Origin: Gemmatimonadota bacterium
Lineage (GTDB): Bacteria > Gemmatimonadota > Gemmatimonadetes > Palauibacterales > Palauibacteraceae
Assembly (NCBI GenBank): GCA_963666735.1
Contig: OY762926.1
Location: 608,001 to 672,000 of the forward strand
Length of the DNA stretch: 64,000 nucleotides
Direction of reading: 5' to 3'
A program made the position numbers and the translations under genes. The notes under the pieces are model-generated. The model was not told where the DNA came from. It ran no database searches and saw only the letters and a list, made by a program, of their open reading frames with translations. Every line of letters begins with the position of its first letter. The first letter of the stretch is position 1. This document shows positions 1 to 14,116 of this stretch, one piece after another.

Positions 1-973
1 CCATCATTTTCGTCAAATCCAGCGGTACGAAGGGCACTGGGTCCGCCACGGCATCCCTCCACTGGTCGTCAGCTACGGTCGTTGCAATCCACAGATGTCC
101 ACCCGCGTACTTCAAGCCTCTAATGACCGATGGCGCCGGAGCCTCGAGCGGATATCCTTCCAACGGCGGGCCTGGCGTGAACCAGGGGGGGCGCCCCTCC
201 AACCGAACGACCCTGTCCGGATCCGCGGGATCCCACGCCTCGACGGCGTACTCGGTGGGTAGTGCCCGCCACACTCTCCCCTCCTCATCCGTTGCCAGCG
301 GCGAAGGGAAGAAACGGCGCATCGCATCGTCCGTGGGTACGACGGCAATCATCTCGATCGTATTCCCATCCAGATCGATGGCTTGCGTGATCTCGGCGCG
401 CTCCGAGTCGTCGGTGCGCCCCCAGCCCGCCAACACGAACCCCGAACCGGACGCCAGCGCCATGAAGTTAGTCGTGAACCTCGCGCCGATGTCTGTCAAC
501 TGCATCGGCTCCCAAGCCGCGGACAGATGCGTAATTCGCCGAATGAATGGATCGAGCACCAGCACGCCGCCATCGGGCAGGGGCCGCAACATGCCGTGGC
601 CCGGTTCGAAGAACTCGCCCGGACCTTCTCCGCTCCGCCCGAAGCTCTCCCGGTACGTGCCTTGGCCATCGTATACCAACATCTCCGCGCCGTTCTCCGG
701 GGTGGCGAGCACGAAGTCGCCGGACTCGAGGCGCGTGATTATCGAGGGAGATCCGATGGTGCCCGGATCATCCATCGCTCCGAGACTGAGTGCCTCATCG
801 AGCACGACCTCGCACGACGGCGGCTCCGAAGAGATCGGCAACACCTGCTGCGAGGCCGCCATTGCTGGAGCACCCGCGAGGAGGGCGCCCGGCAACCACC
901 ACCGCCGAAGCGATGACGATGACACTGCGCCGACCAGGCGGGTCGGCTCTTGGGCACGCCACCTCAGGTACAT
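1..973 (-). CDS. 6-bladed/NHL-type beta-propeller protein, probably exported; runs off the window start
   Basis: Not in the ORF track. Manual translation from ATG 973 gives MYLRWRAQ...LLAGAPAMAASQQ...MLVYDGQGTYRESFGRSGEGPGEF...DGGVLVLD...DEEGRVW..., open to position 1. GxGxGPGEF is typical of this family. The + strand ORF 123..1013 is its antisense shadow. Confidence 0.85.
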   Translation of the reverse strand, partial: MYLRWRAQEPTRLVGAVSSSSLRRWWLPGALLAGAPAMAASQQVLPISSEPPSCEVVLDEALSLGAMDDPGTIGSPSIITRLESGDFVLATPENGAEMLVYDGQGTYRESFGRSGEGPGEFFEPGHGMLRPLPDGGVLVLDPFIRRITHLSAAWEPMQLTDIGARFTTNFMALASGSGFVLAGWGRTDDSERAEITQAIDLDGNTIEMIAVVPTDDAMRRFFPSPLATDEEGRVWRALPTEYAVEAWDPADPDRVVRLEGRPPWFTPGPPLEGYPLEAPAPSVIRGLKYAGGHLWIATTVADDQWRDAVADPVPFVPLDLTKMM

Positions 974-1560
974 TCGCCAAAACACCAAAACCGGCCATCG
1001 GGCCCGCAACTGATGTTGGGGATACAAAAAGCGGCACGACACCTTGAACTGAGATCATCGGGACTCACGCAATCGCCGATGTTGCGGCAGCTACACCACG
1101 GAATCACGTCATCGGGAGGCGCGGTGGCGTCTGACAAATCCGATGACCCGAGCAATCTGAAAGCGAACCAAGCCTCCTCGCGGCTAAACAGGTTCGACAC
1201 TGCTGTCTCAAGCGCTTGTTCCGCCCGCGAGCCCCGGTCCGTAGGGTGTTGCTCGTACCAAGCTCTTACGCTCCCAATCACCGCCTTCTGTTCGCTGCTG
1301 AAGCGATCATCTTGTGCGGCGCGGGCCAGATGCTCGCTTCGGAGCATGGAGCGAAGATCCTCGTTCCCCCGGCTCGTGATGATTGCGCGTTCCGCTGGTC
1401 CGTACTCAATGAACCTCTCGTAAGTGAGCGTCGGGGAGTCGACGTGCTGCGCGACCGGGTCCGCTGTCGCACACACACCTGCGGGACCGCTATACTCTTC
1501 CCGCTCTTCGGTTAGGCCGGACATCCCGATCCCGGCCGCCGCCGAACACAGGCTAACCAT
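964..1560 (-). CDS. Bacteriocin fulvocin C-related precursor: helical pro-domain plus C-terminal 8-Cys peptide
   Basis: The C-terminal 43 aa (CSCRNIGDC...RC...FC...SCGPDGRFWCFGECT) hold 8 Cys. The middle region TYERFIEYGPAERAII...RSMLRSEHL...SSEQKAVI resembles the pro-region of fulvocin C-related proteins as I recall it. The start may be ATG 1571 with a frameshift. Confidence 0.7.
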   Translation of the reverse strand: MVSLCSAAAGIGMSGLTEEREEYSGPAGVCATADPVAQHVDSPTLTYERFIEYGPAERAIITSRGNEDLRSMLRSEHLARAAQDDRFSSEQKAVIGSVRAWYEQHPTDRGSRAEQALETAVSNLFSREEAWFAFRLLGSSDLSDATAPPDDVIPWCSCRNIGDCVSPDDLSSRCRAAFCIPNISCGPDGRFWCFGECT

Positions 1561-1649
1561 TTCAGCCTCATGAGATTCTCTCTCCTTTTCGGCGGCCTAA
1601 TAACGTGACTAAAACTAGACGCACAACTATCGCTTTTTCACGTGATCCA

Positions 1650-1679
1650 AGTGTAAATTACAATCTTCGAAAATGTCAA
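1650..1679 (-). promoter_or_regulatory. sigma70-type promoter TTGACA-N18-TACACT with overlapping palindrome TGTAA-n-TTACA (1652-1662)
   Basis: The minus strand reads cTTGACAttttcgaagattgtaattTACACTtgg, in an AT-rich patch upstream of the peptide gene. Confidence 0.6.
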
Positions 1680-2045
1680 GCCGTCGAAACCGGCTGAACG
1701 GGATCCGGGGGCGGAGCGGATCGGCGTGACGCAACGGCATTCTCGCCGGTCGCGCCGGAAGTTCGAGGCCGAAGGCGCCGCGGCGGCGGTTCACGGGCGA
1801 AGCACCGCCGCCGGCGTCCGAGGCGGGCGGCGCTGGGCGAGCCGGGGCAGTGGGACAGCTCGGTGCACCCGTGGCTGGAGGAGCGGGCGGCGGAAGGGCG
1901 GGTGCCGGTCTCGATCCGCGACGACGCGACGAGCCGGCTGATGATGGCCCGCTTCGTAGCGCGCGACGACGGGGCGGAGAACCGGCGGGCGATCATCGGC
2001 TACCTTCGCCGCCACGTCCAGCCCGTAGTCGGTGTACACCGACTA
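1677..2045 (+). pseudogene. Degenerate ISNCY/IS1202-like transposase fragment
   Basis: HTH-like GAERIGVTQRHSRRSRRKFEAEGAAAAVHG, then QWDSSVHPWLEER...IRDDATSRLMMARF...YLRRH...VYTD; deletions and frameshifts. Confidence 0.7.
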
Positions 2046-2049
2046 CGCC

Positions 2050-2420
2050 GGACTGCGGCGCAATGCCGACTTCGCAGCGGGGATGGAGCGGGTGCTCGAC
2101 GTCTACCGGCGTCCGTACGATGCGAACTTCCAAGTGGTGTACATGGACGAGACGCCGCGCCAGGTGATCGGCGAGACCCGCACGCCCGTCCCGCCGGCAC
2201 CGGGACGGGCGGCCCGCGAAGAACACGAGTACAGGCGCCTCGGCACCCGCAACGTGTTCATGGCCACCGAACCGCTGGCCGGCCGGCGCCAGACCAAGGT
2301 GACCGGGCGCAGGACCAAGACCGACTGGGGCCGCTTCCTGCGCGACATCGCCGCGCAGTACCCCGGCGCCGCCCGGATCAGGCTGGTGATGGACAACCTG
2401 AACACGCACCGCCCCGGTGC
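2050..2420 (+). pseudogene. IS630-family transposase fragment
   Basis: ADFAAGMERVLDVYRRPYD...VVYMDE...HEYRRLGTRNVFMATEPLAGRR...RRTKTDW...IRLVMDNLNTH; truncated at both ends. Confidence 0.85.
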
Positions 2421-2524
2421 GCCTGGCACGCGGCCAGAGACCGAATCCAAGCCAACGAGGCCGCGTTCCGCCGCGCCTTCGGGATCGTAGAGGCGGCCGA
2501 ACAGCATGACCTCCGCTGATGTCG

Positions 2525-2818: not shown

Positions 2819-4691
2819 GCCTAAAACAAGCGAGTAGGGCTGGCGAGGCGTCACTTGGATTTCGGGCGGCGGATTATGGGCGGAGGAGGCCGCCGGGAAG
2901 CCGTGTTTCCGTGGTTCCGAGGCGGGGATTCGGGGTTTGTCGCTCGGCGGAAGGAGGGTGCGGGGCCGGCGTTTTGCGCGGGGAGACACCGGTCCCCGGG
3001 GAGGCGGTTGACGCCTTCGGGCGAGCCGGGCCCGGCGGCGGGTGCTACGTGAAGCCGGTCCGCTCGATGGTGTTCCAGGTGCTGAACAGGCGGTCCACCG
3101 AGGGCCGCCAGCCGATGATGCGCAGGGTCGTGCGGCGGGCGCGGCGGATGACTTGGCAGGGCACGAGGATCATCTCGCGGACGAAGCGCCTGAACTCCAT
3201 GGCGGTGTATTTCCGGCGGTCGGCCTTCAGGTGCATCATCATCGCCAGGAAGCTCTTGAGGTTCCACGCCAAGGCCGCCATCACCATGTAGGCCCAGTTG
3301 CTCACCAGGTCGTAGACGGGCACGCGCAGCGCGTTCACCCCGTTCTTGAGCTGCGCGATCACGTTCTCCTGGCCGCACCGGGCGTTGGCCAGCCGGACGA
3401 CCTCGGCCGCGCTCACGTCCCTCCGGGTGGTGATGTGGAAGAAGTGGCGGATCTCCTCGATGAGGGCGAGTTCGCCCCTCATCTCGCTGATGTTCTTGCG
3501 CACCACCACCATCCGGTACGTCTTGCGGCACTTGACGGGCCGGTGGTCGAACTCGGCCACCTCCTCGAAGTTGAGCCGCTTGTTCACGTAACCGCGCTCG
3601 CGCACGATCCGCCCCTTCACGTCCTCCCGCCCACTCCGCGTCTTCCCCGTCCGGGACACGTGGCGGGGCTTGCGCTCCAGAGGCTTCCAGTCGTCCTCCT
3701 CCAGCGCCTCGGCCCGCCGCACCAGCGCCGAATGGGCGTCGTAGCCGAAGATGAAGTCCGCCCGCTCGCTCCAGCGGTCGAAGTTGACGGTCAGCGAGAA
3801 GTCCGTGTCCCCGCGCACGCACACCCGCTCCGCGTACGGCGCCACCAGGTCGATGGCCCGGTCGATCCACTCCGCCGCGCCGGCGTGGCTCACCGCGTTG
3901 CCCGGCCGGTTCACCACGTAGAGCACCTCGGCCGTGTTGGCCAGCGACACGACCAGCGGGTGGTAGCCCCACACCTTCTTGTAGGACATGTCCATGCCCG
4001 CCTTCTTGCGGCCCAGCGTGGGCGCCAGCGTCCCGTCCACGTCGATATGGGCCACCGGCTCCAGCAGATCCCGGCCCCGGCCCCGCCACAGCTTGGGCCT
4101 GACCGCGTTGACGCACTCCATGAGCTCGACCACGTCCGACTCGGAGAAGCGCCGCGTGAAGTCGCCCGCCGCCGTCGGACTGGGGATCACGTCCGCGCCC
4201 AGGGCGTCCATGTACGCCGCGTCGTGGCGCAGGCCGTTCAGATCCTCGAGCCGCGCGCCCCCGCACAGCAGGTTGTAGGCGATGTTCAGCACGTGGTCCG
4301 ACTCGTGGTACGGCAGGTGCCGCTTCAGAAGATCCAGTCGCCGGTCGATCTCCCGCGCCAGCGAAAGCTTCGACACCAGGCGCCGCACGGCGCCGATGCC
4401 CCCGAAGCTCATCGCGCTCGTCCGCGCCCCGATCTCGTAGCGGAGCCCGCCCGCCGAAAACACGGGCTTCGGCCGGGAGCCCCGCCGCCTCGCCCCCGCC
4501 CGCCGCGACTCCACTCTCCGCTTCCGCCGGGCACTGTTCCTTCGGCTCTGCCTGTGCGATATTCCGTTCACCGGAAAGGCCTCCTGGTTGGGATCGGGCG
4601 TCCATCGTTCGAATCCGCTATCGACAATCAGGATAAGCCTTTCCGGTACCTTTTAACAAGGGTTCGCGCGTGGATCGCGCCTGTTTTAGGC
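2819..4691 (-). mobile_element. IS1380-family insertion sequence, apparently complete
   Basis: Terminal IRs GCCTAAAACAAGCG (from 2819) and CGCCTGTTTTAGGC (to 4691), flanked by CTAG at 2815-2818 and 4692-4695. An alternative reading is a 6-bp CCTAGG duplication. Confidence 0.9.
3045..4571 (-). CDS. IS1380-family DDE transposase
   Basis: LLKRHLPYHESDHVLNIAYNLLCGG...IDVDGT...GYHPLVVSLANT...RGDTDF...ENVIAQLKNG...NWAYMVMAALAWNL. Confidence 0.93.
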   Translation of the reverse strand: MNGISHRQSRRNSARRKRRVESRRAGARRRGSRPKPVFSAGGLRYEIGARTSAMSFGGIGAVRRLVSKLSLAREIDRRLDLLKRHLPYHESDHVLNIAYNLLCGGARLEDLNGLRHDAAYMDALGADVIPSPTAAGDFTRRFSESDVVELMECVNAVRPKLWRGRGRDLLEPVAHIDVDGTLAPTLGRKKAGMDMSYKKVWGYHPLVVSLANTAEVLYVVNRPGNAVSHAGAAEWIDRAIDLVAPYAERVCVRGDTDFSLTVNFDRWSERADFIFGYDAHSALVRRAEALEEDDWKPLERKPRHVSRTGKTRSGREDVKGRIVRERGYVNKRLNFEEVAEFDHRPVKCRKTYRMVVVRKNISEMRGELALIEEIRHFFHITTRRDVSAAEVVRLANARCGQENVIAQLKNGVNALRVPVYDLVSNWAYMVMAALAWNLKSFLAMMMHLKADRRKYTAMEFRRFVREMILVPCQVIRRARRTTLRIIGWRPSVDRLFSTWNTIERTGFT

Positions 4692-4946
4692 CTAGGCTCC
4701 GCCACAGGGAGAGACCGTCGGTCCGCGGGGCCGTACAACGGTTCGGGTGCGTCCCGGTGTCAAAGCCGCGATCTCTGACGTTGATAGACGGTTGACAGTT
4801 TTGCGATAGATTCAGCTTGCCGCGACCACTCGGACCGGTGTCGGGTTACGGATACCCGGCGGTCGGCGACCTCGGGAGACGCTCGAGGGGACGGCTTGAA
4901 CATCGACGGGCGAGGAACGCGCCCCGAACACAGCGGTGCGAAGCTT

Positions 4947-6197
4947 ATGAAGGCACGTCATTGGGTCACGTTGATCGTCATGCTCATCGCGGGTGCGGCT
5001 GTCGTCGGCATCTTCATGCGGTTGAGCGAGGACGAGGAAGAGGGGCCGGAGACCTTCGGCGATCCCGCCGCGGACTCGGTGGCGGAGGCGGTGCGGGGGA
5101 CGGCCTCCGCCGCTGCCTTCGCCACGGATATCTTCCTTCCCGTCGAGGGGGCCGTCATCCAGCGCGATACTTTCGTGCTCTGGGTTACGGCGAGCGGGCG
5201 CGCCGTGTCTCTCCGCCGCGCGCCGCTCCATGCCGATGTCCAGGGGCCCGTGACGGCGGTGCCGGTGCAGGAAGGGGAGCATGTGCGCGCAGGCCAGCTC
5301 CTGGCGCGGATCGACCCGACGCTCTACGAACTCCGGGCGCAGCGGGCGGAGGCCGGAGTGGCGCGCGCGCAGGCGGAATATCTGGACCGGGTGCTTTTCG
5401 ATGAGGAACTGCCCGACTCGGTCCGGCTGGCTCGTGCCGAGCAGGCTCGCATTCGGGTGAGCCTCCCCGATCAGGAGGCGCAACTCGCGGAAGCGCGCTA
5501 CGAACTGGAGAAGACCCGCATCGTCGCCCCCTTCGCCGGCCTGGTGGCGAACCTCGGGGTGGCGCAGGGGAGCCGGGTCCGGACGGGCGATTCGATCGCG
5601 ACCATCGTGGACCTGTCCGAGATCGACATCGACGCCGGAGTTCTCCACTCCGAACTCCCCCTCATTGAAGTTGGACGGGAGGCGACCGCCACCTTCCCCG
5701 CGCTTCGCGGAGAGGTTTTTGAGGGGCGCGTCGTGAGCGTGAATCCGCTGGTCGATCCCGAGACGCAGACGGCGCGGGTCACCGTGCGCCTGTCGAACCC
5801 CGAAACCCGCATCGTCCCGGGCATGCCGGGGAATGTACGGATCGCCGGCCGGCAACTCGCGGACCGGACGTTCGTGCCGAAAGAGGCCGTCGTCGAGCGG
5901 AGCCGGCGCCAGGTCGTGTTCGTCTTCGAGCCGGGGGCGCCGGGCTCGGAGACGGGGCGCGCGCAGTGGGAATACGTGACGCTGGGCCTCGAGAACGACA
6001 CGCAGTTCGAGATCATCCCCAACCCGGACGGCGACGACACCTTCGTGCCGGCGGGGGGCGAAATCGTGCTCGTCGACGGTCACGCCACGCTCACGCACGA
6101 CGCCCAGGTGCGGATCGACAACCACAGCGAACTCGAGACGCCTTCGGAGCCGCCCGCAGACGGCGGCGAGAACGGCTCCACGGGCGGCTCGCGATGA
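4947..6197 (+). CDS. RND efflux periplasmic adaptor (membrane fusion protein)
   Basis: N-terminal TM anchor, lipoyl-like halves (VQEGEHVRAGQLLARID; IVAPFAG), FEGRVVSVNPLVDPETQTARV. Start chosen at ATG 4947. Confidence 0.92.
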   Translation: MKARHWVTLIVMLIAGAAVVGIFMRLSEDEEEGPETFGDPAADSVAEAVRGTASAAAFATDIFLPVEGAVIQRDTFVLWVTASGRAVSLRRAPLHADVQGPVTAVPVQEGEHVRAGQLLARIDPTLYELRAQRAEAGVARAQAEYLDRVLFDEELPDSVRLARAEQARIRVSLPDQEAQLAEARYELEKTRIVAPFAGLVANLGVAQGSRVRTGDSIATIVDLSEIDIDAGVLHSELPLIEVGREATATFPALRGEVFEGRVVSVNPLVDPETQTARVTVRLSNPETRIVPGMPGNVRIAGRQLADRTFVPKEAVVERSRRQVVFVFEPGAPGSETGRAQWEYVTLGLENDTQFEIIPNPDGDDTFVPAGGEIVLVDGHATLTHDAQVRIDNHSELETPSEPPADGGENGSTGGSR

Positions 6198-7591
6198 GGG
6201 GCGGCGCCGGAGGCTGCTCGCCGCGGGTCCGCGGTGTGGTCGCTCTCGTCCCCCTGCTGATGGCCGGAGGACTTGGGGTCGCGGTGCCGGCGGAGGCGCA
6301 GGGGCCGACACTGCCGGACACGCTCGATATTACGAGGGCGATCCGGATCGCCATGAGCGAGAGTCCCGTGCTGCGGGTGTCCCGGACGCAAGCGGATCGA
6401 GCGGGCGCCGATCAGTTGGCGGCGTGGGGGGCGTTCCTCCCGAGGGCCGGCGTTGACGCCAGTCTCAGCCGGTCAAGTTTCTCCCGGACCACGTTCGTCG
6501 GCGAGGAGGGGCTGTCCGAGACGCTCCCGCAGACCCTCAGCTCTTCGAGCCAGGGAGCGAGTCAGGGGATCAACCTCAATTGGACCCTGCTCGACGGCGG
6601 ACGGCGGTTCTCCGAGATCTCGCGGTCTGCCGCAAGCCTGCGGGCCGCACACCGGCGATACGACGACCAGCAGCGCACTGTGGTTCTGGCAGTGCGCCGG
6701 GAATTCCTGGAAGCACTGCGGCGCCAGGACCTGCTGGAGCTTACCCGGGATCAGATCACCGACCGGGAACTCGAACTTGATATCGCTCGCCGGCGATACG
6801 AGATCGCGGCTGTGGAACGCACCGATGTTCTGGCCGCCCAGTCGCAGCTTCTCGATGCCCGAATCAGGCTGCTCTCGGAAGAAAACCAGTTGCGAAACGG
6901 CCTGAGGCAGTTGGTCGTATCGATGGGCCTCCCACCGGAATCCGGCGATGGTCTCGTACTTACGGGCGATGAGGGGATGCCCCGGGGGCTGCCGAATATC
7001 GACCTGATCGTGGAGTCGGCCGTCACCTCCGATCCCGGCCTCCTGGCCCTCGACGCCGAGCGGTCCGCCGCCGCGGCCTCGTTGTGGTCCGCGCGCCTGA
7101 ACTACCTGCCCACCATCAACGTCGGGCTGGGCTGGGGACGCGGGGAGAACTTCGGTCCCGAGGATTCGTTCTGGCAGTTCGACCCGGGCGACACGAGTCA
7201 CAGATTCAGTATCACCGCCTCCTGGAATCTCTTCGATGGCTTTCGCCGGGAAGTTCAGAACGCCCAGGCGTCGGCCGCCAAGCGACAGGCCGAGGAGGAT
7301 CTGCGGAGCCGGCGGCTGGAAATCGAACGCGATGTCCGTCGCTTCGGCTCGGAAATCGAGGAGTGGGCGCAGACGCTTGAGCTACTGGAGCAGCAATACG
7401 AGATCTCCCGCGAACGCCTCGACATGGAACAGGAGCGCTATCGGCTCGGCACCGCGAGTTTCCTTCAGCTTCAGAGCGCGATCGATGCGGTTCAGCGTGC
7501 CGAGACGTCGCTGATCCAGAACCAGTACAATTACCTGATCGCCTGGGCCAACCTTTCCGAGTACATGGAGGGCAGGCCCGGCAGCCCATGA
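6194..7591 (+). CDS. TolC-family outer membrane efflux protein
   Basis: Signal peptide, AFLPRAGV and YLPTINV repeats, ERYRLGTASFLQL; ATGA overlap with the MFP stop. Confidence 0.92.
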   Translation: MRGGAGGCSPRVRGVVALVPLLMAGGLGVAVPAEAQGPTLPDTLDITRAIRIAMSESPVLRVSRTQADRAGADQLAAWGAFLPRAGVDASLSRSSFSRTTFVGEEGLSETLPQTLSSSSQGASQGINLNWTLLDGGRRFSEISRSAASLRAAHRRYDDQQRTVVLAVRREFLEALRRQDLLELTRDQITDRELELDIARRRYEIAAVERTDVLAAQSQLLDARIRLLSEENQLRNGLRQLVVSMGLPPESGDGLVLTGDEGMPRGLPNIDLIVESAVTSDPGLLALDAERSAAAASLWSARLNYLPTINVGLGWGRGENFGPEDSFWQFDPGDTSHRFSITASWNLFDGFRREVQNAQASAAKRQAEEDLRSRRLEIERDVRRFGSEIEEWAQTLELLEQQYEISRERLDMEQERYRLGTASFLQLQSAIDAVQRAETSLIQNQYNYLIAWANLSEYMEGRPGSP

Positions 7592-7604
7592 CGAGACTCC
7601 GCTA

Positions 7605-10600
7605 GTGGCGCTTCCCGATCTCTCGCTTCGGCGGCCGGTGGCTACGGCGATGCTCTACGTGGGCATCGGCGTGCTGGGCGTGGTGTCGTTCCTCCGTCTG
7701 CCCATCGATCTGCTGCCGGATGTCGCCTTCCCGACGCTGTCCGTGTGGACGACGTATTCGGACGCGGGACCCGCCGAAGTCGAACGCTTCATCACGGAAC
7801 CCATCGAGCAGCAGTTGTACTCGATCCCGGGGGCGCGCCGCATCTCCTCGCGCTCACGGGAGGGGCAGTCGCTCGTGCAGCTCCAGTTCGCGTGGGGCAC
7901 GGACATGGAGTTTGCGACGCTCCACACCCGGGAGAAGCTGGACAACCTGTCCGACCGGCTCCCGGAGGGCTCGGAGCGGCCCACGATTCTGAGATCGGAT
8001 CCGACCAGCGATCCGATCATGACGCTGGCGGTGAGCGGGACCGACCTGCGCAGCCTGCGCGATATCTCAGAAGTCGTCTTCAAGCGCCGCCTGGAGCAGT
8101 TGGACGGCGTCTCGCTCGCGGGGCTGACGGGCGGACCCGAACGGGAACTGCGGGTCATCGTGGACCCGGAGTACCTCGACGTGCACGAGGTCTCGATCAG
8201 CGAGATCTCGAACGCGCTCGACCAGGCGAACTACAACGCCCCCGGGGGCACGATCCAGCGGGGCCGTTTCGAGTACAGCCTGCGCACGCTGGGCCAGTTC
8301 CGGGAGGTGGAGGAGCTGCTCGACGTCGTCATTGCCCGCCCGACGGGGCCCGGAGCCCGTCCGGTACGCCTCGCCGACGTCGCCACCGTCGCCGACACGA
8401 TCGCGGATCTCGAGACGATCGCCCGATTCAACGGAGAGCCGGCCGTCGGGCTGCAGGTGTTCAAGGAGGCGGGGACGAACACGGTCCGCGTGGCGGATGG
8501 GGTGCGCGAAACGCTGGCTCAGCTTGGCGAGGAGTTCCCCGAGGTATCGATCGAGGTCGCCTCCAGCCAGGCGGCCTTCATCCGGGACGCGATCTCGAAT
8601 GTCGTCTCCGCGCTGCTGCTCGGCGGCGCGCTGGCGTTCCTCGTCCTCTTCCTCTTCCTGCGAGATCCGAGGTATCCGCTGGCCATCGGGCTCGCCATTC
8701 CGATCTCGGTCATGGCGGCGTTCGCCCTCTGCTACGCCTTCGACGTCAGTCTCAACATCATGTCCCTCGGCGGCCTCGCGCTCGGGGTCGGCCTGCTCGT
8801 CGACAACTCCATCGTAGTGCTCGAGAACATCTTCCGGCACCGCGAGGAATCGGGCGGGAGCGCGAGGGAATCGGCCGGGCGGGGCGCCCGGGAAGTGGCG
8901 GCCGCGATCACGGCGTCCACGCTCACCACGATCGCGGTGTTCGGTCCGGTGCTGTACGTGGAGGGCGTGGCGGGCGCGCTGTTCGGCGATCTCTCGCTCG
9001 CGGTGACCTTCTCGCTGCTCGCCTCGCTGCTCGTCGCGCTCACGCTGCTTCCGGTGCTCGCGGCCCAGGTGGCCCGGGGGAGGCGGGGAGCTGCAGCGGC
9101 CGATGGCGAAGGCGAGATTGCCGCGTCTGAGCGGCTAGATCCGGCGTGGGCGGAGCCGCCGGGCCGCGTGCGCCGAGTCGGCCGGGCGGTACAGGCGGGC
9201 GCGGCTGCGACCGCGCGAGGCGTCGGGGGCGGGGTGGCCTACGTGGGGCGCTCGGTCCGGCTCACGGGCGTCGATGTCGCGACGGGCGGCGGCAGGTTCC
9301 TCGGTCGCCTCTTCGGTCCCTTCCTGCGGGCTTTCGAGCGCGGGTTCCTCCGTTTCGCCGGGCGGTACGAGCGGACGCTCGAGTGGGCCCTGGAGCACCG
9401 GCTGGGAGTGGTTTCGATCGCCGTCATCGCCCTGGCCGGCGCGGTCGTGCTCGCGGCGTCGCTTCCGCGCGGACTCATGCCGCGCGTCGACGAGCGGCAG
9501 TTCTGGGTCGAACTCAACCTCCCTCAGGGGACGCCGATCCGCACGACGGACGAGGCGGCCCGGAATGTCGAGCGGCTTCTCCTCGACATGGCGGACGTCT
9601 CGGGCATCTTCACGAGAGTGGGCCGCAGCCGGGGCAGCGAACTCGCGGCGCGCGACCTCACGGGACTCAACAACGCGGCCCTCGATGTCCAGCTCGCCGG
9701 ATCGTCCCGGCCGACGCCCGAAGCCATCGCGGAACTCCGCGAGCGGCTCCCGGGGAGCGGACTCGATCCGGCCTTCGTGACGATCGAGACCGGACGGGCG
9801 ACGTCGCTCGGCAGGGCGCTGGCGATCGGGGAAGCCGATCTCGCGGTAAAGGTGCAGAGCGGAGAACTGGATGAACTCGTGCCGGTCGCCGAAGCGATCG
9901 AGACCCGGCTGGAGGGCGTCTCGACGCTGGCGGATGTCCGGCTCGACTTCCTGCGCACGCAGCCGGAACTCGTCATCGAGGTCAACCGGGAGGTGGCGGC
10001 CCGGCACCAGATCACCGTGACGTCCGTTGCGACCGCGATCGAGGACTACCTGCGCGGGTCGGAGACGAGGAACGCCTACTCGGTATTCGCAGACAAGATC
10101 GACATCCGGGTGACGATCCCGGAGGCGGCGCGCCGCGAACTCGACCGCGTGCTCGCGCTTCGGCTGCAGGGCGTGCCGATCGGTGAACTGGTGACGGTCC
10201 GGCAGGGGTTCGGTCCGGTCGAGATCCGGCGGGAGGATCAGAACCGCACGATTCAGGTGCTCGCGGACGTGGCCGATGGCGGACTGCGCACGGCGGTGCG
10301 GGAGGTGGAAGCCGCGATTGCGGATATCCCGCGGCCGGCGCTCACGACCGTGCGCGTGGGCGGCGAGAACGAGGAGATGCAGGAGAGCTTCCGCTCGCTC
10401 ACCTTCGCCTTCGCCCTCGCGCTGGCGCTCGTTTTCCTCATCATGGCCGCGCAGTTCGAGTCGCTCGTGCAGCCGCTCGTCGTCCTCACCGCGGTGCCGC
10501 TCGCCGCGATCGGGGCGGTGACGGCGCTGTGGATCGCGGGGGACGGCCTCAACGCGATGAGCGGGATCGGACTCGTGATCCTCATCGGCATCGTCGTCAA

Positions 10601-11015
10601 CGACGCGATCGTGAAGGTCGACTTCATCAATCAACGAAGAAGATCCGGCCTGACGAAGCGGAATGCGATCCTTGAAGCGGGCCGGCTCAGGCTCCGTCCC
10701 ATCGTGATGACGACCATCACGACCGTGGTTGGGCTGCTCCCGCTCGCCGCCGGGCTGGGAGCCGGGGCCGACCTCCGCGCGCCGCTGGCCGTAGCGGTGA
10801 TCGGCGGTCTCCTCTCCGCGACGTTCCTCACGCTCATCGTCGTGCCCGTGGTATACTCGATCATGGTCGAACCATCCGTGTCGGTGGGGCGGGAACCGGA
10901 CCCGCGGCCCGAGCGTCGCGACCCGGCAGCGCTCCAGCCGAAGCCGGGGTACGGACTCGGCGGCCGCTCCGGGCCGGCGGCTCCGGGCATGGCGCGAGGG
11001 AGCGTGGAACCATGA
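7605..11015 (+). CDS. RND efflux permease subunit 1 (AcrB/SwrC-like)
   Basis: RRPVAT...LPIDLLPD, GLLVDNSIVVLENI, VVNDAIVKVDFI, RLRPIVMTT. Confidence 0.95.
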   Translation: MALPDLSLRRPVATAMLYVGIGVLGVVSFLRLPIDLLPDVAFPTLSVWTTYSDAGPAEVERFITEPIEQQLYSIPGARRISSRSREGQSLVQLQFAWGTDMEFATLHTREKLDNLSDRLPEGSERPTILRSDPTSDPIMTLAVSGTDLRSLRDISEVVFKRRLEQLDGVSLAGLTGGPERELRVIVDPEYLDVHEVSISEISNALDQANYNAPGGTIQRGRFEYSLRTLGQFREVEELLDVVIARPTGPGARPVRLADVATVADTIADLETIARFNGEPAVGLQVFKEAGTNTVRVADGVRETLAQLGEEFPEVSIEVASSQAAFIRDAISNVVSALLLGGALAFLVLFLFLRDPRYPLAIGLAIPISVMAAFALCYAFDVSLNIMSLGGLALGVGLLVDNSIVVLENIFRHREESGGSARESAGRGAREVAAAITASTLTTIAVFGPVLYVEGVAGALFGDLSLAVTFSLLASLLVALTLLPVLAAQVARGRRGAAAADGEGEIAASERLDPAWAEPPGRVRRVGRAVQAGAAATARGVGGGVAYVGRSVRLTGVDVATGGGRFLGRLFGPFLRAFERGFLRFAGRYERTLEWALEHRLGVVSIAVIALAGAVVLAASLPRGLMPRVDERQFWVELNLPQGTPIRTTDEAARNVERLLLDMADVSGIFTRVGRSRGSELAARDLTGLNNAALDVQLAGSSRPTPEAIAELRERLPGSGLDPAFVTIETGRATSLGRALAIGEADLAVKVQSGELDELVPVAEAIETRLEGVSTLADVRLDFLRTQPELVIEVNREVAARHQITVTSVATAIEDYLRGSETRNAYSVFADKIDIRVTIPEAARRELDRVLALRLQGVPIGELVTVRQGFGPVEIRREDQNRTIQVLADVADGGLRTAVREVEAAIADIPRPALTTVRVGGENEEMQESFRSLTFAFALALALVFLIMAAQFESLVQPLVVLTAVPLAAIGAVTALWIAGDGLNAMSGIGLVILIGIVVNDAIVKVDFINQRRRSGLTKRNAILEAGRLRLRPIVMTTITTVVGLLPLAAGLGAGADLRAPLAVAVIGGLLSATFLTLIVVPVVYSIMVEPSVSVGREPDPRPERRDPAALQPKPGYGLGGRSGPAAPGMARGSVEP

Positions 11016-14000
11016 TCGATCTGGCCATCCGCCGACCGGTGGCGACCGCGGCGATCTACGTCGCCCTCTTCGCGCTCGGCGTGACGAGCTTCCGGCTCAT
11101 TCCGGTCGAGGACCTGCCCGAAGTCGAATTCCCCCGCCTCACGGTCACCGCCACCTGGAACGGTGCCTCGCCCGAGGCGTTGGAGGCGTTCGTGACCGCG
11201 CCGCTCGAAACCGTCATCCAGCAGGTCGGCGGCGTCGAGAAGGTCGTCTCGGAGTCCGCCGCCGATGCGCGCGGGACGGGCTCCAGCGCCCGGATCGACA
11301 TCGACTTCGAGCGCGACACGCGCATGGAGTTCGCCCGTCTCGAGCTGAGCGAGCGGATCAACTCGATCCGGGATGAGTTGCCCGAGGGCGTGATGCCCAG
11401 CCTCTCCGAGTATGTCCCCCAGGAATTTGCGGAGGAAGAGGAGCAACTCCTCAGCTTTTCGCTGACGGGGCCCTATACGTTCGCGCGCCTGGGGGAGATC
11501 GCCGAGGAGGAGATCGAGCCGTTCGTGCGGGGACTGCCGGGCGTGTCCGCGGTGGAGGTCTACGGGGCCGAACGCCGCGAGATCGCCGTCGAGCTCGACC
11601 GGAGCCGGCTGGAGGCGCTCGGGCTGCGGCCGCAGGAGATCAGCGCCCGGATCGTCGAGCTTTCCGAGCCGAAGGCCCCGGGATCGGTCGAACTCGATGG
11701 GCGGCAGTTCGCCATCGCGGTCCGCACCCGAGCTCTCGAGGTGTCGGACATCGCGGACATGATCGTCCTCACGCGGCCCGACGGCGCGGTCCGCGTCGGC
11801 GATCTGGGGCAGGTGCGCGACCAGACTGAAGATCCGATGTTCTTCTGGCGCATCAACTCCCAGCCCACGATCTCGATCAACGTGTACCGCCAGTCGGGTA
11901 CGAACGTGATCCAGGTCGCGGACGACGTGAAGGCCGAGATGACCGAACTGGCCTCCGCCCTCCCGGCGGGCGTGGCCCTCGAGTTGCTGCGCGATCAGAG
12001 CGAGAACATCCGGGAGCAGCTCACGGAGCTTCGGCTCCGGGCCATCGCGGCCGCGATCGTGATCTTCATCGTACTCACGATCTTCCTGCGGTCGCTCGGC
12101 GCCGTCCTCGTCGTGTTCGCGACGATCGGCTTCAGCGTCTTGACCGCGGTGAACTTCCTCTACATGGGCGGTTTCTCACTGAACCTGCTCACGCTGTGGG
12201 GACTCGCGTGGGGGTTCGGCCTCGTCGTCGACAACGGCATCGTCGTTCTAGAAAACGTGGAACGTCACCGCCGGGCCGGGGCGGGGCCATCCGATGCCGC
12301 GCGCCGCGGGGCGCGCCAGGTCGTCCTGCCCGTCCTCGCCGCGACGATGACGACCGCGATCGTACTCGTACCCTTCCTCTTCCTGCAGGGGGAGTTGCGG
12401 GTCTACTACCTGCCGCTGTCCTTCGCCGTGGGTTTCTCGATCATCGCGAGTCTCTTCGTCGCGTTCACCTTCGTTCCGGCCCTCGCCTCGCGGGTCGCCC
12501 GCATGCGGGATTCCACCGGGGCCGTGGTCGACCCGGCCCTGACGACCGGGGAAGCCGCGTCGGCGCCGGCCCGGCGGTCCGAACCGTTCTACATCGCGGG
12601 ATACCGGTCGCTCCTCGGGTTCGCCCTGCGGCACCCCGTCGTCATCGCCGCCGTCTGTCTCGGGAGCCTCGCCGGGAGCTGGTATCTGTTCGACGAGCAT
12701 GTGAACACCGGGAGTTACTGGAGCGGCTTCGGCGGGCGCGGCAGCGGTATCTCGATCACGATCAACTTCCCGCGCGGCGCGGGACTGGAGCGCACGGACG
12801 AACTTGTGCGCTCCTTCGAGGCGAAGCTCGCCACCATCGATGAAGTGAAACGCTTCGAGGCCCGGGTCCAGCCGAACTACGCCCGCATGCGCGCGGAATT
12901 CCCCGACGAACTCGAACACACGTCCATCCCGGTGGCCATCAAGGACCAGATGGTGGCCTACAGCTACGGGTTTTCGGGCGTCGACGTCTTCGTGCGCGGA
13001 TACGGTCCCAGCTTCTACGGCGGCGGCTCGAGTCCGCCCAACTACCGCCTCCAGGTGCTCGGGTACAACTATCTGACGGTGCAGGAGATCGCCGAGGAGA
13101 TTGCGTCGCGGCTGACGCGATTCTCCCGCATCCGCGACGTGGACCCGAACGCGACCAGCGGCTTCTTCCGGCGCGACAAGGAATTCGAATACTACGTGGA
13201 GCCGGACCGTGAGGCGCTGGCGGCCTACAATCTCCCCGTCTCGCAGTTGCTCGACTACGTGTCCCGCAACATTGAGGGCCGGCCGTCCGGGAGCCGGATC
13301 AGGGTGGGCGGAGAGGAGGTCCAGTACGCCGTCAAGGTGGACGGGTACCGCGAGTTCGACTTCTACGATCTGAGCGACCTGCGGGTGCCGATCTCCTCCC
13401 GCGAGGAACTCCGGCTCGCCAGCGTTGCGGAGGTGGGGCGCCGGCAGGTCCTGGCCAGCATCCGGCGCGAAGACCAGCAGTATGAGAGGACGGTGGCCTG
13501 GGAGTTCCGGGGGCCGGCAAAGCTCGGCGACGTGGTGCGCGACGCGGTGGTGGACGCGATGGAACTCCCGCCGGGATACAGGATCGAGGAGTCCCGCATC
13601 GGGGGCTGGACGACGGAGGAGACGACGCAGATGTGGGTCGTCCTCGCCTTCTCCATCCTCCTCATCTACATGGTGACCGCGGGGCTGTTCGAGTCGCTCG
13701 CGGCGCCGTTCGTCGTGCTCTTCTCGCTGCCGTTCGCCCTCATCGGGGTCTTCCTCATCTTCTTCTATACCGACGCCACCTTCACCCGCACCGCGTTCAT
13801 CGGCACGATCATGATGGGCGGCATCGTCGTGAACAATGCCATCCTTGTGGTCTACCACATCGGCGAATTGCGCAAACGCATGCCGACGGGCGCCGCGATC
13901 GTGCAGGGGACGCTGGAGCGCGTACGTCCCATCCTCATGACGACGCTGACGACGGTGTTCGGACTCCTGCCTCTCGTCCTCTTCGCCTCCTCCCAGGATG

Positions 14001-14116
14001 AGAACATCTGGAACGCGCTCGCGCTGGCCACCATCGGGGGGCTGATCTCGAGTACCCTGTTCGTGCTCGTCGCAATTCCGGTCGCATATCGTTACATCGT
14101 GGCACGCCGTATCTGA
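11012..14116 (+). CDS. RND efflux permease subunit 2
   Basis: IRRPVAT, GLVVDNGIVVLENV, VVNNAIL, RVRPILMTTLTT; ATGA overlap. Confidence 0.95.
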   Translation: MIDLAIRRPVATAAIYVALFALGVTSFRLIPVEDLPEVEFPRLTVTATWNGASPEALEAFVTAPLETVIQQVGGVEKVVSESAADARGTGSSARIDIDFERDTRMEFARLELSERINSIRDELPEGVMPSLSEYVPQEFAEEEEQLLSFSLTGPYTFARLGEIAEEEIEPFVRGLPGVSAVEVYGAERREIAVELDRSRLEALGLRPQEISARIVELSEPKAPGSVELDGRQFAIAVRTRALEVSDIADMIVLTRPDGAVRVGDLGQVRDQTEDPMFFWRINSQPTISINVYRQSGTNVIQVADDVKAEMTELASALPAGVALELLRDQSENIREQLTELRLRAIAAAIVIFIVLTIFLRSLGAVLVVFATIGFSVLTAVNFLYMGGFSLNLLTLWGLAWGFGLVVDNGIVVLENVERHRRAGAGPSDAARRGARQVVLPVLAATMTTAIVLVPFLFLQGELRVYYLPLSFAVGFSIIASLFVAFTFVPALASRVARMRDSTGAVVDPALTTGEAASAPARRSEPFYIAGYRSLLGFALRHPVVIAAVCLGSLAGSWYLFDEHVNTGSYWSGFGGRGSGISITINFPRGAGLERTDELVRSFEAKLATIDEVKRFEARVQPNYARMRAEFPDELEHTSIPVAIKDQMVAYSYGFSGVDVFVRGYGPSFYGGGSSPPNYRLQVLGYNYLTVQEIAEEIASRLTRFSRIRDVDPNATSGFFRRDKEFEYYVEPDREALAAYNLPVSQLLDYVSRNIEGRPSGSRIRVGGEEVQYAVKVDGYREFDFYDLSDLRVPISSREELRLASVAEVGRRQVLASIRREDQQYERTVAWEFRGPAKLGDVVRDAVVDAMELPPGYRIEESRIGGWTTEETTQMWVVLAFSILLIYMVTAGLFESLAAPFVVLFSLPFALIGVFLIFFYTDATFTRTAFIGTIMMGGIVVNNAILVVYHIGELRKRMPTGAAIVQGTLERVRPILMTTLTTVFGLLPLVLFASSQDENIWNALALATIGGLISSTLFVLVAIPVAYRYIVARRI

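Follow-up and report, generated by a model that had tools for sequence, protein, structure and literature searches.

A fulvocin C-related precursor and its beta-propeller neighbour in Gemmatimonadota: a recurrent pairing with a probably decaying copy

Near its first letter, a stretch of 64,000 nucleotides from a Gemmatimonadota genome, called the window here, carries an open reading frame (ORF) that ends in a small domain with eight cysteines. What kind of protein does this gene encode, does the protein leave the cell, and why does the gene overlap one for a beta-propeller? Fulvocin C, from Myxococcus fulvus, is a peptide of about 45 residues with eight cysteines, and it offers a first point of comparison. 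In what follows, G000 is the genome carrying the window, labels such as G002 and G013 stand for other Gemmatimonadota genomes, and labels beginning with L stand for loci. The main features are these:

964..1560, minus strand: fulvocin C-related precursor (NF033852), an ORF of 198 residues that lacks the start of its signal peptide; placed by the ORF, the family model and a comparison of N-termini
967..1095, minus strand: eight-cysteine core of 43 residues, spacing 1,5,9,4,5,7,3, net charge -1
1096..1146, minus strand: acidic, proline-rich linker and presumed site of cleavage; the closest homologues have about 7-8 residues more here
1147..1473, minus strand: helical pro-domain, residues 30-138, with a conserved lone cysteine (Cys30) and with a near-invariant tryptophan deleted in this copy
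1..973, minus strand: NHL/DUF5128-like beta-propeller gene with an N-terminal hydrophobic stretch; its frame is intact and continues beyond position 1 of the window as far as genome position 607,804

The earlier note on this DNA had proposed an ORF of 198 residues with a helical middle region, an acidic linker and, at 967-1095, a C-terminal core of 43 residues with eight cysteines. All of this holds. The core spacings fit the proposed pattern, and in the translated ORF the linker DATAPPDDVIPW stands directly ahead of the core. An AlphaFold model built with 25 sequences is helical over residues 41-140, with a pLDDT of 79-96. In the same model the core is of low confidence, with a pLDDT of 43-56. 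One coordinate has to be corrected: position 1571, the end coordinate given there, is an ATG in another frame that leads to a peptide of 19 residues, and the 198-residue ORF starts at ATG 1560.

The precursor is a member of NF033852, the NCBIfam family "bacteriocin fulvocin C-related protein", with a marginal score. The 198-residue ORF reaches 35.9 bits against a cut-off of 35 (E 1.2e-8, profile positions 10-149 of 150), and the precursor scores 36.5 bits in the genome search. Most of this comes from the pro-domain, and the core alone gives no match to the family model. The long pro-region that precedes the core in this family is present (helical, residues about 35-135, covered by the profile), with one near-invariant tryptophan missing. 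The cut-off is also passed by all 26 homologues scanned, which are 26 of 29 other proteins, three fragments having been left out. Eight homologues are 52-68% identical to the precursor. The closest, WP_419950144.1 from Candidatus Palauibacter sp. (68%), is already named a fulvocin C-related protein by NCBI, and a profile search returned 22 proteins.

The HMM search thus bears out the suggestion that the gene belongs to a fulvocin C-like family. That suggestion had been staked beforehand on the conservation of cysteine spacing among homologues, and the spacing is conserved: none of the eight core cysteines varies across the 25 family sequences aligned, and the last spacings, 7 and 3, are common to nearly all cores compared. 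Given these cysteines and the E value of the family match, a chance ORF was rejected. At least 90% of 34 alignment rows also keep a ninth cysteine, Cys30, where the pro-domain begins. The names of homologues (Ca. Palauibacter at 68%, Gemmatimonadetes, Gemmatimonadaceae) support the phylum that had been guessed, Gemmatimonadota. The idea that the family is rare in this phylum is not supported, since NCBI annotates it there already and the family alignment matches 16 of 401 phylum genomes. Within the order the family model matches 3 of 145 genomes, all of them in this genus. The fulvocin C-related family is also found on Streptomyces plasmids (10 records). On sequence grounds, the precursor is an ordinary, patchily distributed member of an already named family.

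Other searches with the precursor gave no Pfam family, no match among solved structures searched by sequence, and nothing at E <= 0.001 when its model was run through Foldseek. No paralogue occurs in G000, and a related-locus search of metagenome and genome contigs found no relatives. A wide structure search (VIA) returned generic helical bundles with a best Z of 5.3, and barely probed the core. The best ESM Atlas score, 0.88, was to unnamed clusters and is a lead only.

Some relatives have a different architecture. Four actinomycete-type members (P0019, P0026, P0027 and P0028) have at the N-terminus a domain of about 110 residues that contains a CxxC motif and is followed by a twin-arginine-like signal, and three of the four lack Cys30. 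The label "DCC1-like" was considered for this domain and dropped, as it had no support from Pfam, where the domain has no match. Stand-alone ORFs that resemble the pro-domain, of 134-144 residues and lacking both signal and cysteine core, occur in three other Gemmatimonadota genomes (L030:1462-1893, L031:1471-1872, L035:1477-1902).

The neighbouring gene, whose probable ATG is at 973, overlaps the end of the precursor. Its product is predicted to be an NHL-type beta-propeller of a distinct subfamily. An alignment profile of 12 neighbour propellers, compared with the PDB, finds NHL propellers at E values down to 1.8e-36, and the propeller model is all-beta with a pTM of 0.85. Against DUF5128 (PF17170) the window propeller scores 17.3, below the cut-off of 22.9, and three neighbour propellers score above it.

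Adjacency alone would mean little, because G000 has about 82 propellers of this broad kind. A subfamily profile was made from 10 neighbour propellers from outside the genus. Run on G000, it sets two proteins apart at 150 and 119 bits; none of the remaining 80 propellers exceeds 61. These two are, in that order, a lone copy outside the window, at G000:C1 897,658-898,779 on the minus strand, and the window partner, to which the lone copy is 42% identical. Since the subfamily was defined from the neighbours, the leave-group-out scores matter; they are 119-218 bits against a background maximum of 55-61. In a tree that includes the 25 best-scoring other propellers of G000, a moderately supported branch (89/76) separates the 12 neighbours and the lone copy from those 25.

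Propellers of the PAL domain have conserved histidines as metal ligands. The propeller profile matches the PAL domain weakly (E 1.5e-4), and no histidine is conserved in at least 9 of the 12 propeller rows. This counts against a zinc lyase of the PAL type, and a PAL-like peptide-amidating lyase was rejected as the partner.

Of 18 core-bearing Gemmatimonadota loci, 14 have a subfamily propeller no more than 1.5 kb away; these 14 span 6 of 9 genera and 4 of 5 families, a count in which related genomes are not independent. Three core-less loci (L030, L031, L035) and two locus-duplicating fragments (L038, L039) were left out. By genus, the pairing is found at 3 of 4 loci in g1, 6 of 6 in g61, 2 of 2 in g145 and the single loci of g113, g38 and g101; it is absent from the single loci of g73, g53 and g55. 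The four loci with no subfamily propeller include all three of family f4. In G000, a subfamily propeller would be met within 1.5 kb by chance in 0.3% of cases, and a propeller of any kind in 8.7%. Two precursors of G206 share one propeller, and the G013 propeller lies in two frames (85 and 35 bits). A tandem arrangement of precursor, propeller and precursor, with two different cores, is seen at L112 (G206:C1 1,763,300-1,766,000).

The fulvocin C-related family does not need the propeller. Besides the four loci just mentioned, all three Streptomyces regions examined have no annotated propeller of the subfamily kind, and one of them has a convergent WD40 gene. The pairing is one-sided, and the propeller subfamily is not exclusive to peptide loci. 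Of 145 genomes in the order, 34 have it; in the genus 24 of 35 do, against 2 of 35 for the peptide. Among the 30 subfamily loci listed of 61 places, the peptide occurs only in G000 and G002. At 14 of these 30 loci a lone subfamily propeller stands between ribF and rpsO, which is also the position of the lone copy in G000. About seven of the 30 lie near other exported cysteine-rich proteins, several with DsbA-like genes; one such mini-protein was compared with the core and has no profile similarity to it.

One group of these proteins forms a distinct family of exported eight-cysteine mini-proteins of about 76 residues. In four genomes of the genus (L046:3740-4027, L047:3-233, L048:603-842, L049:3188-3460), its gene is found two genes upstream of a subfamily propeller, and at least two of the four have a DsbA-like gene there as well. 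A copy is also found in G000:C1 at about 3,876,819. A propeller of the genus at L044 (G035:C85:698-1648) resembles the partner in G460 (genus g61) and has the same permease-like gene upstream, by transfer or contamination.

The reading preferred here, with a probability of roughly 40%, is that an intact cassette encodes an exported pro-bacteriocin, narrow in range and disulfide-bonded, together with an immunity propeller that binds it, and that the window copy is decaying. It is favoured because the one tested member of the family is cited as a bacteriocin, because loss of the peptide gene is commoner than loss of the propeller, and because orphan partners are expected of immunity genes.

Another model, possible though somewhat unlikely, makes the propeller a partner that serves exported cysteine-rich proteins in general, in their maturation or display, and that would fold, hold or trim them together with DsbA. 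The precursor would then be one interchangeable cargo. The subfamily does occur near unrelated eight-cysteine or cysteine-rich exported mini-proteins, several with DsbA-like genes (L046-L049, L066, L067, L069). Likewise, the four actinomycete-type members have a domain with a CxxC motif fused to the N-terminal side of the precursor, and the lone propeller is kept at one chromosomal site in 14 loci. The model has to contend with the absence of the propeller from 4 of the 18 family loci and from all three Streptomyces regions, and the lack of a conserved histidine counts against a PAL-like zinc lyase as the activity involved.

The core itself varies more than the pro-domain. In a first set of sequences, identity is 0.60 in the core against 0.78 in the pro-domain, and the core is lower in 27 of 28 pairs; in a second set it is 0.42 against 0.63, and the core is lower in 36 of 36 pairs. 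The pairs are not independent in either set. Net charge ranges from -13 to +5 across 16 cores, 11 of which are negative. The window core, at -1, argues against a cationic membrane-lytic peptide, which was rejected on this ground and on the number of negative cores.

Variable cores on conserved pro-domains, neutral or acidic in charge, are also what would be seen if the core were a ligand for signalling or kin recognition, received by the propeller in the periplasm or at the cell surface, with no killing at all. A gene for a sigma-70 region 4 protein beside the G338 cassette would suit such a role. This model is unlikely, however: in the other cassettes read, neither a sensor kinase nor a regulator was seen among the adjacent genes, and reference titles in PMC8708641 present the family's only tested member as a bacteriocin. 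Both the ligand with its receptor and the maturation partner fit the data nearly as well as a bacteriocin with its immunity protein.

Least supported, and quite improbable, is a role directed at a eukaryotic host or grazer, in which the peptide would be a stable disulfide mini-protein of a symbiont. Sponge-derived species are reported among the Palauibacterales in PMC10469786, which would fit. Yet the family and its pairing reach other Gemmatimonadota families, and the family extends to soil Streptomyces. In the genus itself the peptide is rare (2 of 35 genomes), and it is broken at 3 of 4 loci.

The two-gene cassette is a patchy accessory element. In the window its neighbours are an aminotransferase gene on one side and an RND membrane-fusion gene on the other, and two transposase genes lie upstream:

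2032..2490, plus strand: DDE_3 transposase fragment, upstream of the cassette, which we take to be IS630-like
3045..4571, minus strand: DDE_Tnp_1_4 transposase, upstream of the cassette, presumably IS1380-like

At 29 other loci of the membrane-fusion gene in the genus, the site is empty in 22, occupied in 2 and ambiguous in 5. The occupants besides the window are G002 and G017, the latter with only a broken propeller remnant. All three occupants are damaged, and the propellers of G000 and G002 are intact. In G017, the closest relative, about 33 kb of other DNA lies at the same site in place of the precursor and the 5' end of the propeller (L110-L111, G017:C4 610,300-643,600). The window also holds an RND-type efflux set at 4896-14116 on the plus strand (membrane-fusion protein, outer-membrane factor and two tandem AcrB-like genes), whose first gene is kept in 32 of 35 genus genomes. 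At 2455-2820 there is a remnant, with about 220 bases missing, of a small gene common at the site in many genus genomes.

Genes beside other cassettes differ from locus to locus. A DsbA gene lies beside the G338 cassette, and among fulvocin-type loci at that locus only. Genes for ABC-transporter ATPases or permeases lie beside the G473 and G460 cassettes. No protease gene was noticed in the cassette loci read.

Whether the protein leaves the cell depends on the 5' end of the gene, where the window copy departs from its relatives. The features there are:

1650..1679, minus strand: match to a sigma-70-like promoter, TTGACA-18-TACACT (10/12 matches, by consensus only); the conserved start lies about 80 nt downstream
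1582..1587, minus strand: Shine-Dalgarno-like AAGGAG ahead of ATG 1571, conserved with the G002 remnant
1512..1571, minus strand: conserved start codon (1569-1571) and a 19-residue out-of-frame product whose first six residues match homologue N-termini
1552..1556, minus strand: frame break, one base shorter than the orthologous G002 sequence, placed by alignment and by homologue N-termini

Close homologues begin with a short basic stretch followed by a hydrophobic one. In the window, the first six residues of this pattern follow from ATG 1571, and the remainder is found in the 198-residue frame. Alignment with G002 keeps the ribosome-binding motif and ATG 1571 and leaves the window one base short. 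Among 21 N-termini compared, that of the 198-residue form has the weakest hydrophobic stretch (1.8, where the others reach 2.3-3.1), and no positive charge precedes this stretch; a net N-terminal charge of zero is also seen in four homologues. By this comparison of hydrophobicity and charge, the window copy lacks the intact export signal seen in full-length homologues. The term "secreted" used in the earlier note is supported for homologues, and there only by the N-terminal pattern.

The window copy has also lost three residues in frame, independently of the frameshift. Among them is the tryptophan present in 29 of 34 rows; four other rows lack it, three of which are fragments. With a signal region one base short and a near-invariant tryptophan deleted, the window copy is probably decaying, and a real loss of export is quite likely. 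With its signal region out of frame, this copy would export little or no peptide, and its genome would be left with an intact propeller.

A missing base may of course come from an assembly error. As a proxy for such errors, frame breaks were counted in 57 of 67 G002 ORFs, those with G000 orthologues, over about 28,000 aligned residues. Nine of the 57 ORFs were flagged. Eight were rechecked and one was set aside as a tandem paralogue by its coordinates, which left one real break. Assembly errors thus appear to be rare in G000.

Selection on the core gives a sense of timing. Over 35 codons compared with the G002 remnant it has a dN/dS of 0.11, which is purifying, and these codons give no sign of diversifying selection or of long decay, so any decay would be recent. 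For the propellers of G000 and G002, both intact, dN/dS is 0.148.

Other copies are damaged as well. The orthologous copy at G002:C15 has a nonsense codon and a large deletion that removed its pro-domain, and its propeller is intact. The copy at G013:C8 lacks its first 77 or so residues, and that of G233 is split by a frame change. Including the window, the precursor is damaged at 4 of 18 core-bearing loci. A run of 11 G lies upstream of the broken G002 copy (L040:1297-1307); the window has no such run. A poly-G phase switch was rejected as a general feature, because a run of at least eight G or C occurs in 3 of 17 loci and not at the window.

It is rather improbable that the window copy still works, either because the missing base is an assembly error or because an exported product is made from ATG 1560. 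The assembly is a single contig, the remaining frame is open with all eight cysteines kept, and the promoter match is intact; three sigma-70-like promoter sites occur in 800-2000, against a shuffle mean of 0.2. There is a Shine-Dalgarno-like site at ATG 1560, with a duplex energy of -7.7. The value at ATG 1571 is -8.4, as low as in 11.7% of random ATGs, and neither site goes beyond random ATGs. The two energies being similar, the 198-residue form may be made. The case is weakened by the low rate of frame breaks (at most 1 of 57 orthologous ORFs), by the independent deletion of the tryptophan, by a signal region that is the weakest of 21, and by the fact that both other occupants of the chromosomal site are broken.

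For an intact cassette, a pro-bacteriocin with its immunity propeller would work as follows. The signal peptide, whose pattern is seen in homologues, would direct the precursor to the periplasm. There the eight core cysteines, whose conservation is seen in the alignment, would form four disulfides, aided by DsbA and possibly by Cys30 of the pro-domain. The helical pro-domain may hold the core folded or latent, and a housekeeping protease would cleave the linker. The core, mostly neutral or acidic, would then act on a specific target instead of by cationic lysis, by analogy with fulvocin C. Finally, the exported propeller would be the putative binder of the core, as the gene pairing suggests.

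A wider version of this model, which is doubtful, is a phylum-wide conflict system with swappable cargo. One clade of NHL propellers would provide immunity to, or capture of, disulfide-rich bacteriocins, and the fulvocin family would be one of its cargoes, connecting the system with a known antibacterial activity. The copy between ribF and rpsO would be a domesticated orphan immunity gene, and the lone cysteine of the pro-domain a built-in thiol catalyst for folding of the core.

The recurrent propeller partner and its link to the fulvocin family are the new element. The family rests on one peptide purified around 1980, with almost no follow-up in the literature searched, and the partner gene is a first testable handle on its target or immunity. 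The window copy is a poor object for such tests, as it is probably broken; intact pairs, for instance those of G473, G338, G350 and G206, are better.

The closest known counterpart by name is fulvocin C. Its length of about 45 residues and its eight cysteines resemble the window core, a likeness by description and not by sequence; a core-only search did not find mature fulvocin C among 29 candidates. Fulvocin C reportedly has activity, to judge by the titles of Hirsch 1977 and of Tsai and Hirsch 1981, both cited in PMC8708641, and this activity belongs to fulvocin C only.

The NF033852 family shares with the window the pro-domain and a C-terminal core of the form CxC...CG-x6-C-x3-C. The curated cut-off is passed, and a protein 68% identical (WP_419950144.1) bears the family name. 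The window differs in its out-of-frame signal region and in its propeller gene, which is not annotated beside the 3 of 3 Streptomyces members.

Published accounts of fulvocins are few in the literature searched, where no paper citing NF033852 was found. Fulvocins are called partly characterised myxobacterial RiPPs in PMC8708641, and fulvocin C peptides are predicted in Corallococcus (bioRxiv 10.1101/2024.10.08.616840). The name also serves in a keyword filter in PMC12333140. The covered part of PMC13518417 does not mention "fulvocin". The main text of PMC10469786, on the Palauibacterales, does not contain "bacteriocin", "RiPP" or "propeller"; its supplement on biosynthetic clusters may bear on the subject.

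The bacteroidetocins (class IIf; PMC6671954, main text) are likewise disulfide-bonded peptide toxins of Gram-negative bacteria with a thiol oxidoreductase gene nearby. They differ in having a double-glycine leader, a peptidase ABC exporter, four cysteines and no pro-domain, and the word "propeller" is absent from that main text. The neighbouring genes tested within bacteroidetocin clusters gave no immunity according to the same text, which counts against the immunity reading of the propeller. The window does not fit a class IIf bacteroidetocin cluster: its cassette is flanked by aminotransferase, transposase and RND membrane-fusion genes, and homologues of the precursor have Sec-like N-termini.

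The partner resembles the NHL-repeat propellers of TRIM71, Thin and the PAL domain of PAM in its profile match and in its all-beta model. It differs from these and from DUF5128 in scoring below the DUF5128 cut-off, in having no conserved histidine, and in being an exported bacterial protein.

The nearest arrangement is that of the Gemmatimonadota cassettes with a cysteine mini-protein, a propeller and DsbA, on which the literature searched yielded no paper. Like the window, they place an exported cysteine-rich cargo beside a propeller, in a cassette that is accessory and patchy, and the same propeller subfamily occurs among them. The window cargo differs in being a precursor of about 200 residues with a pro-domain, from a named family, and DsbA accompanies fulvocin-type loci at one place only, in G338. 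With it, the mini-protein and propeller cassettes gain their first cargo from a family with reported activity.
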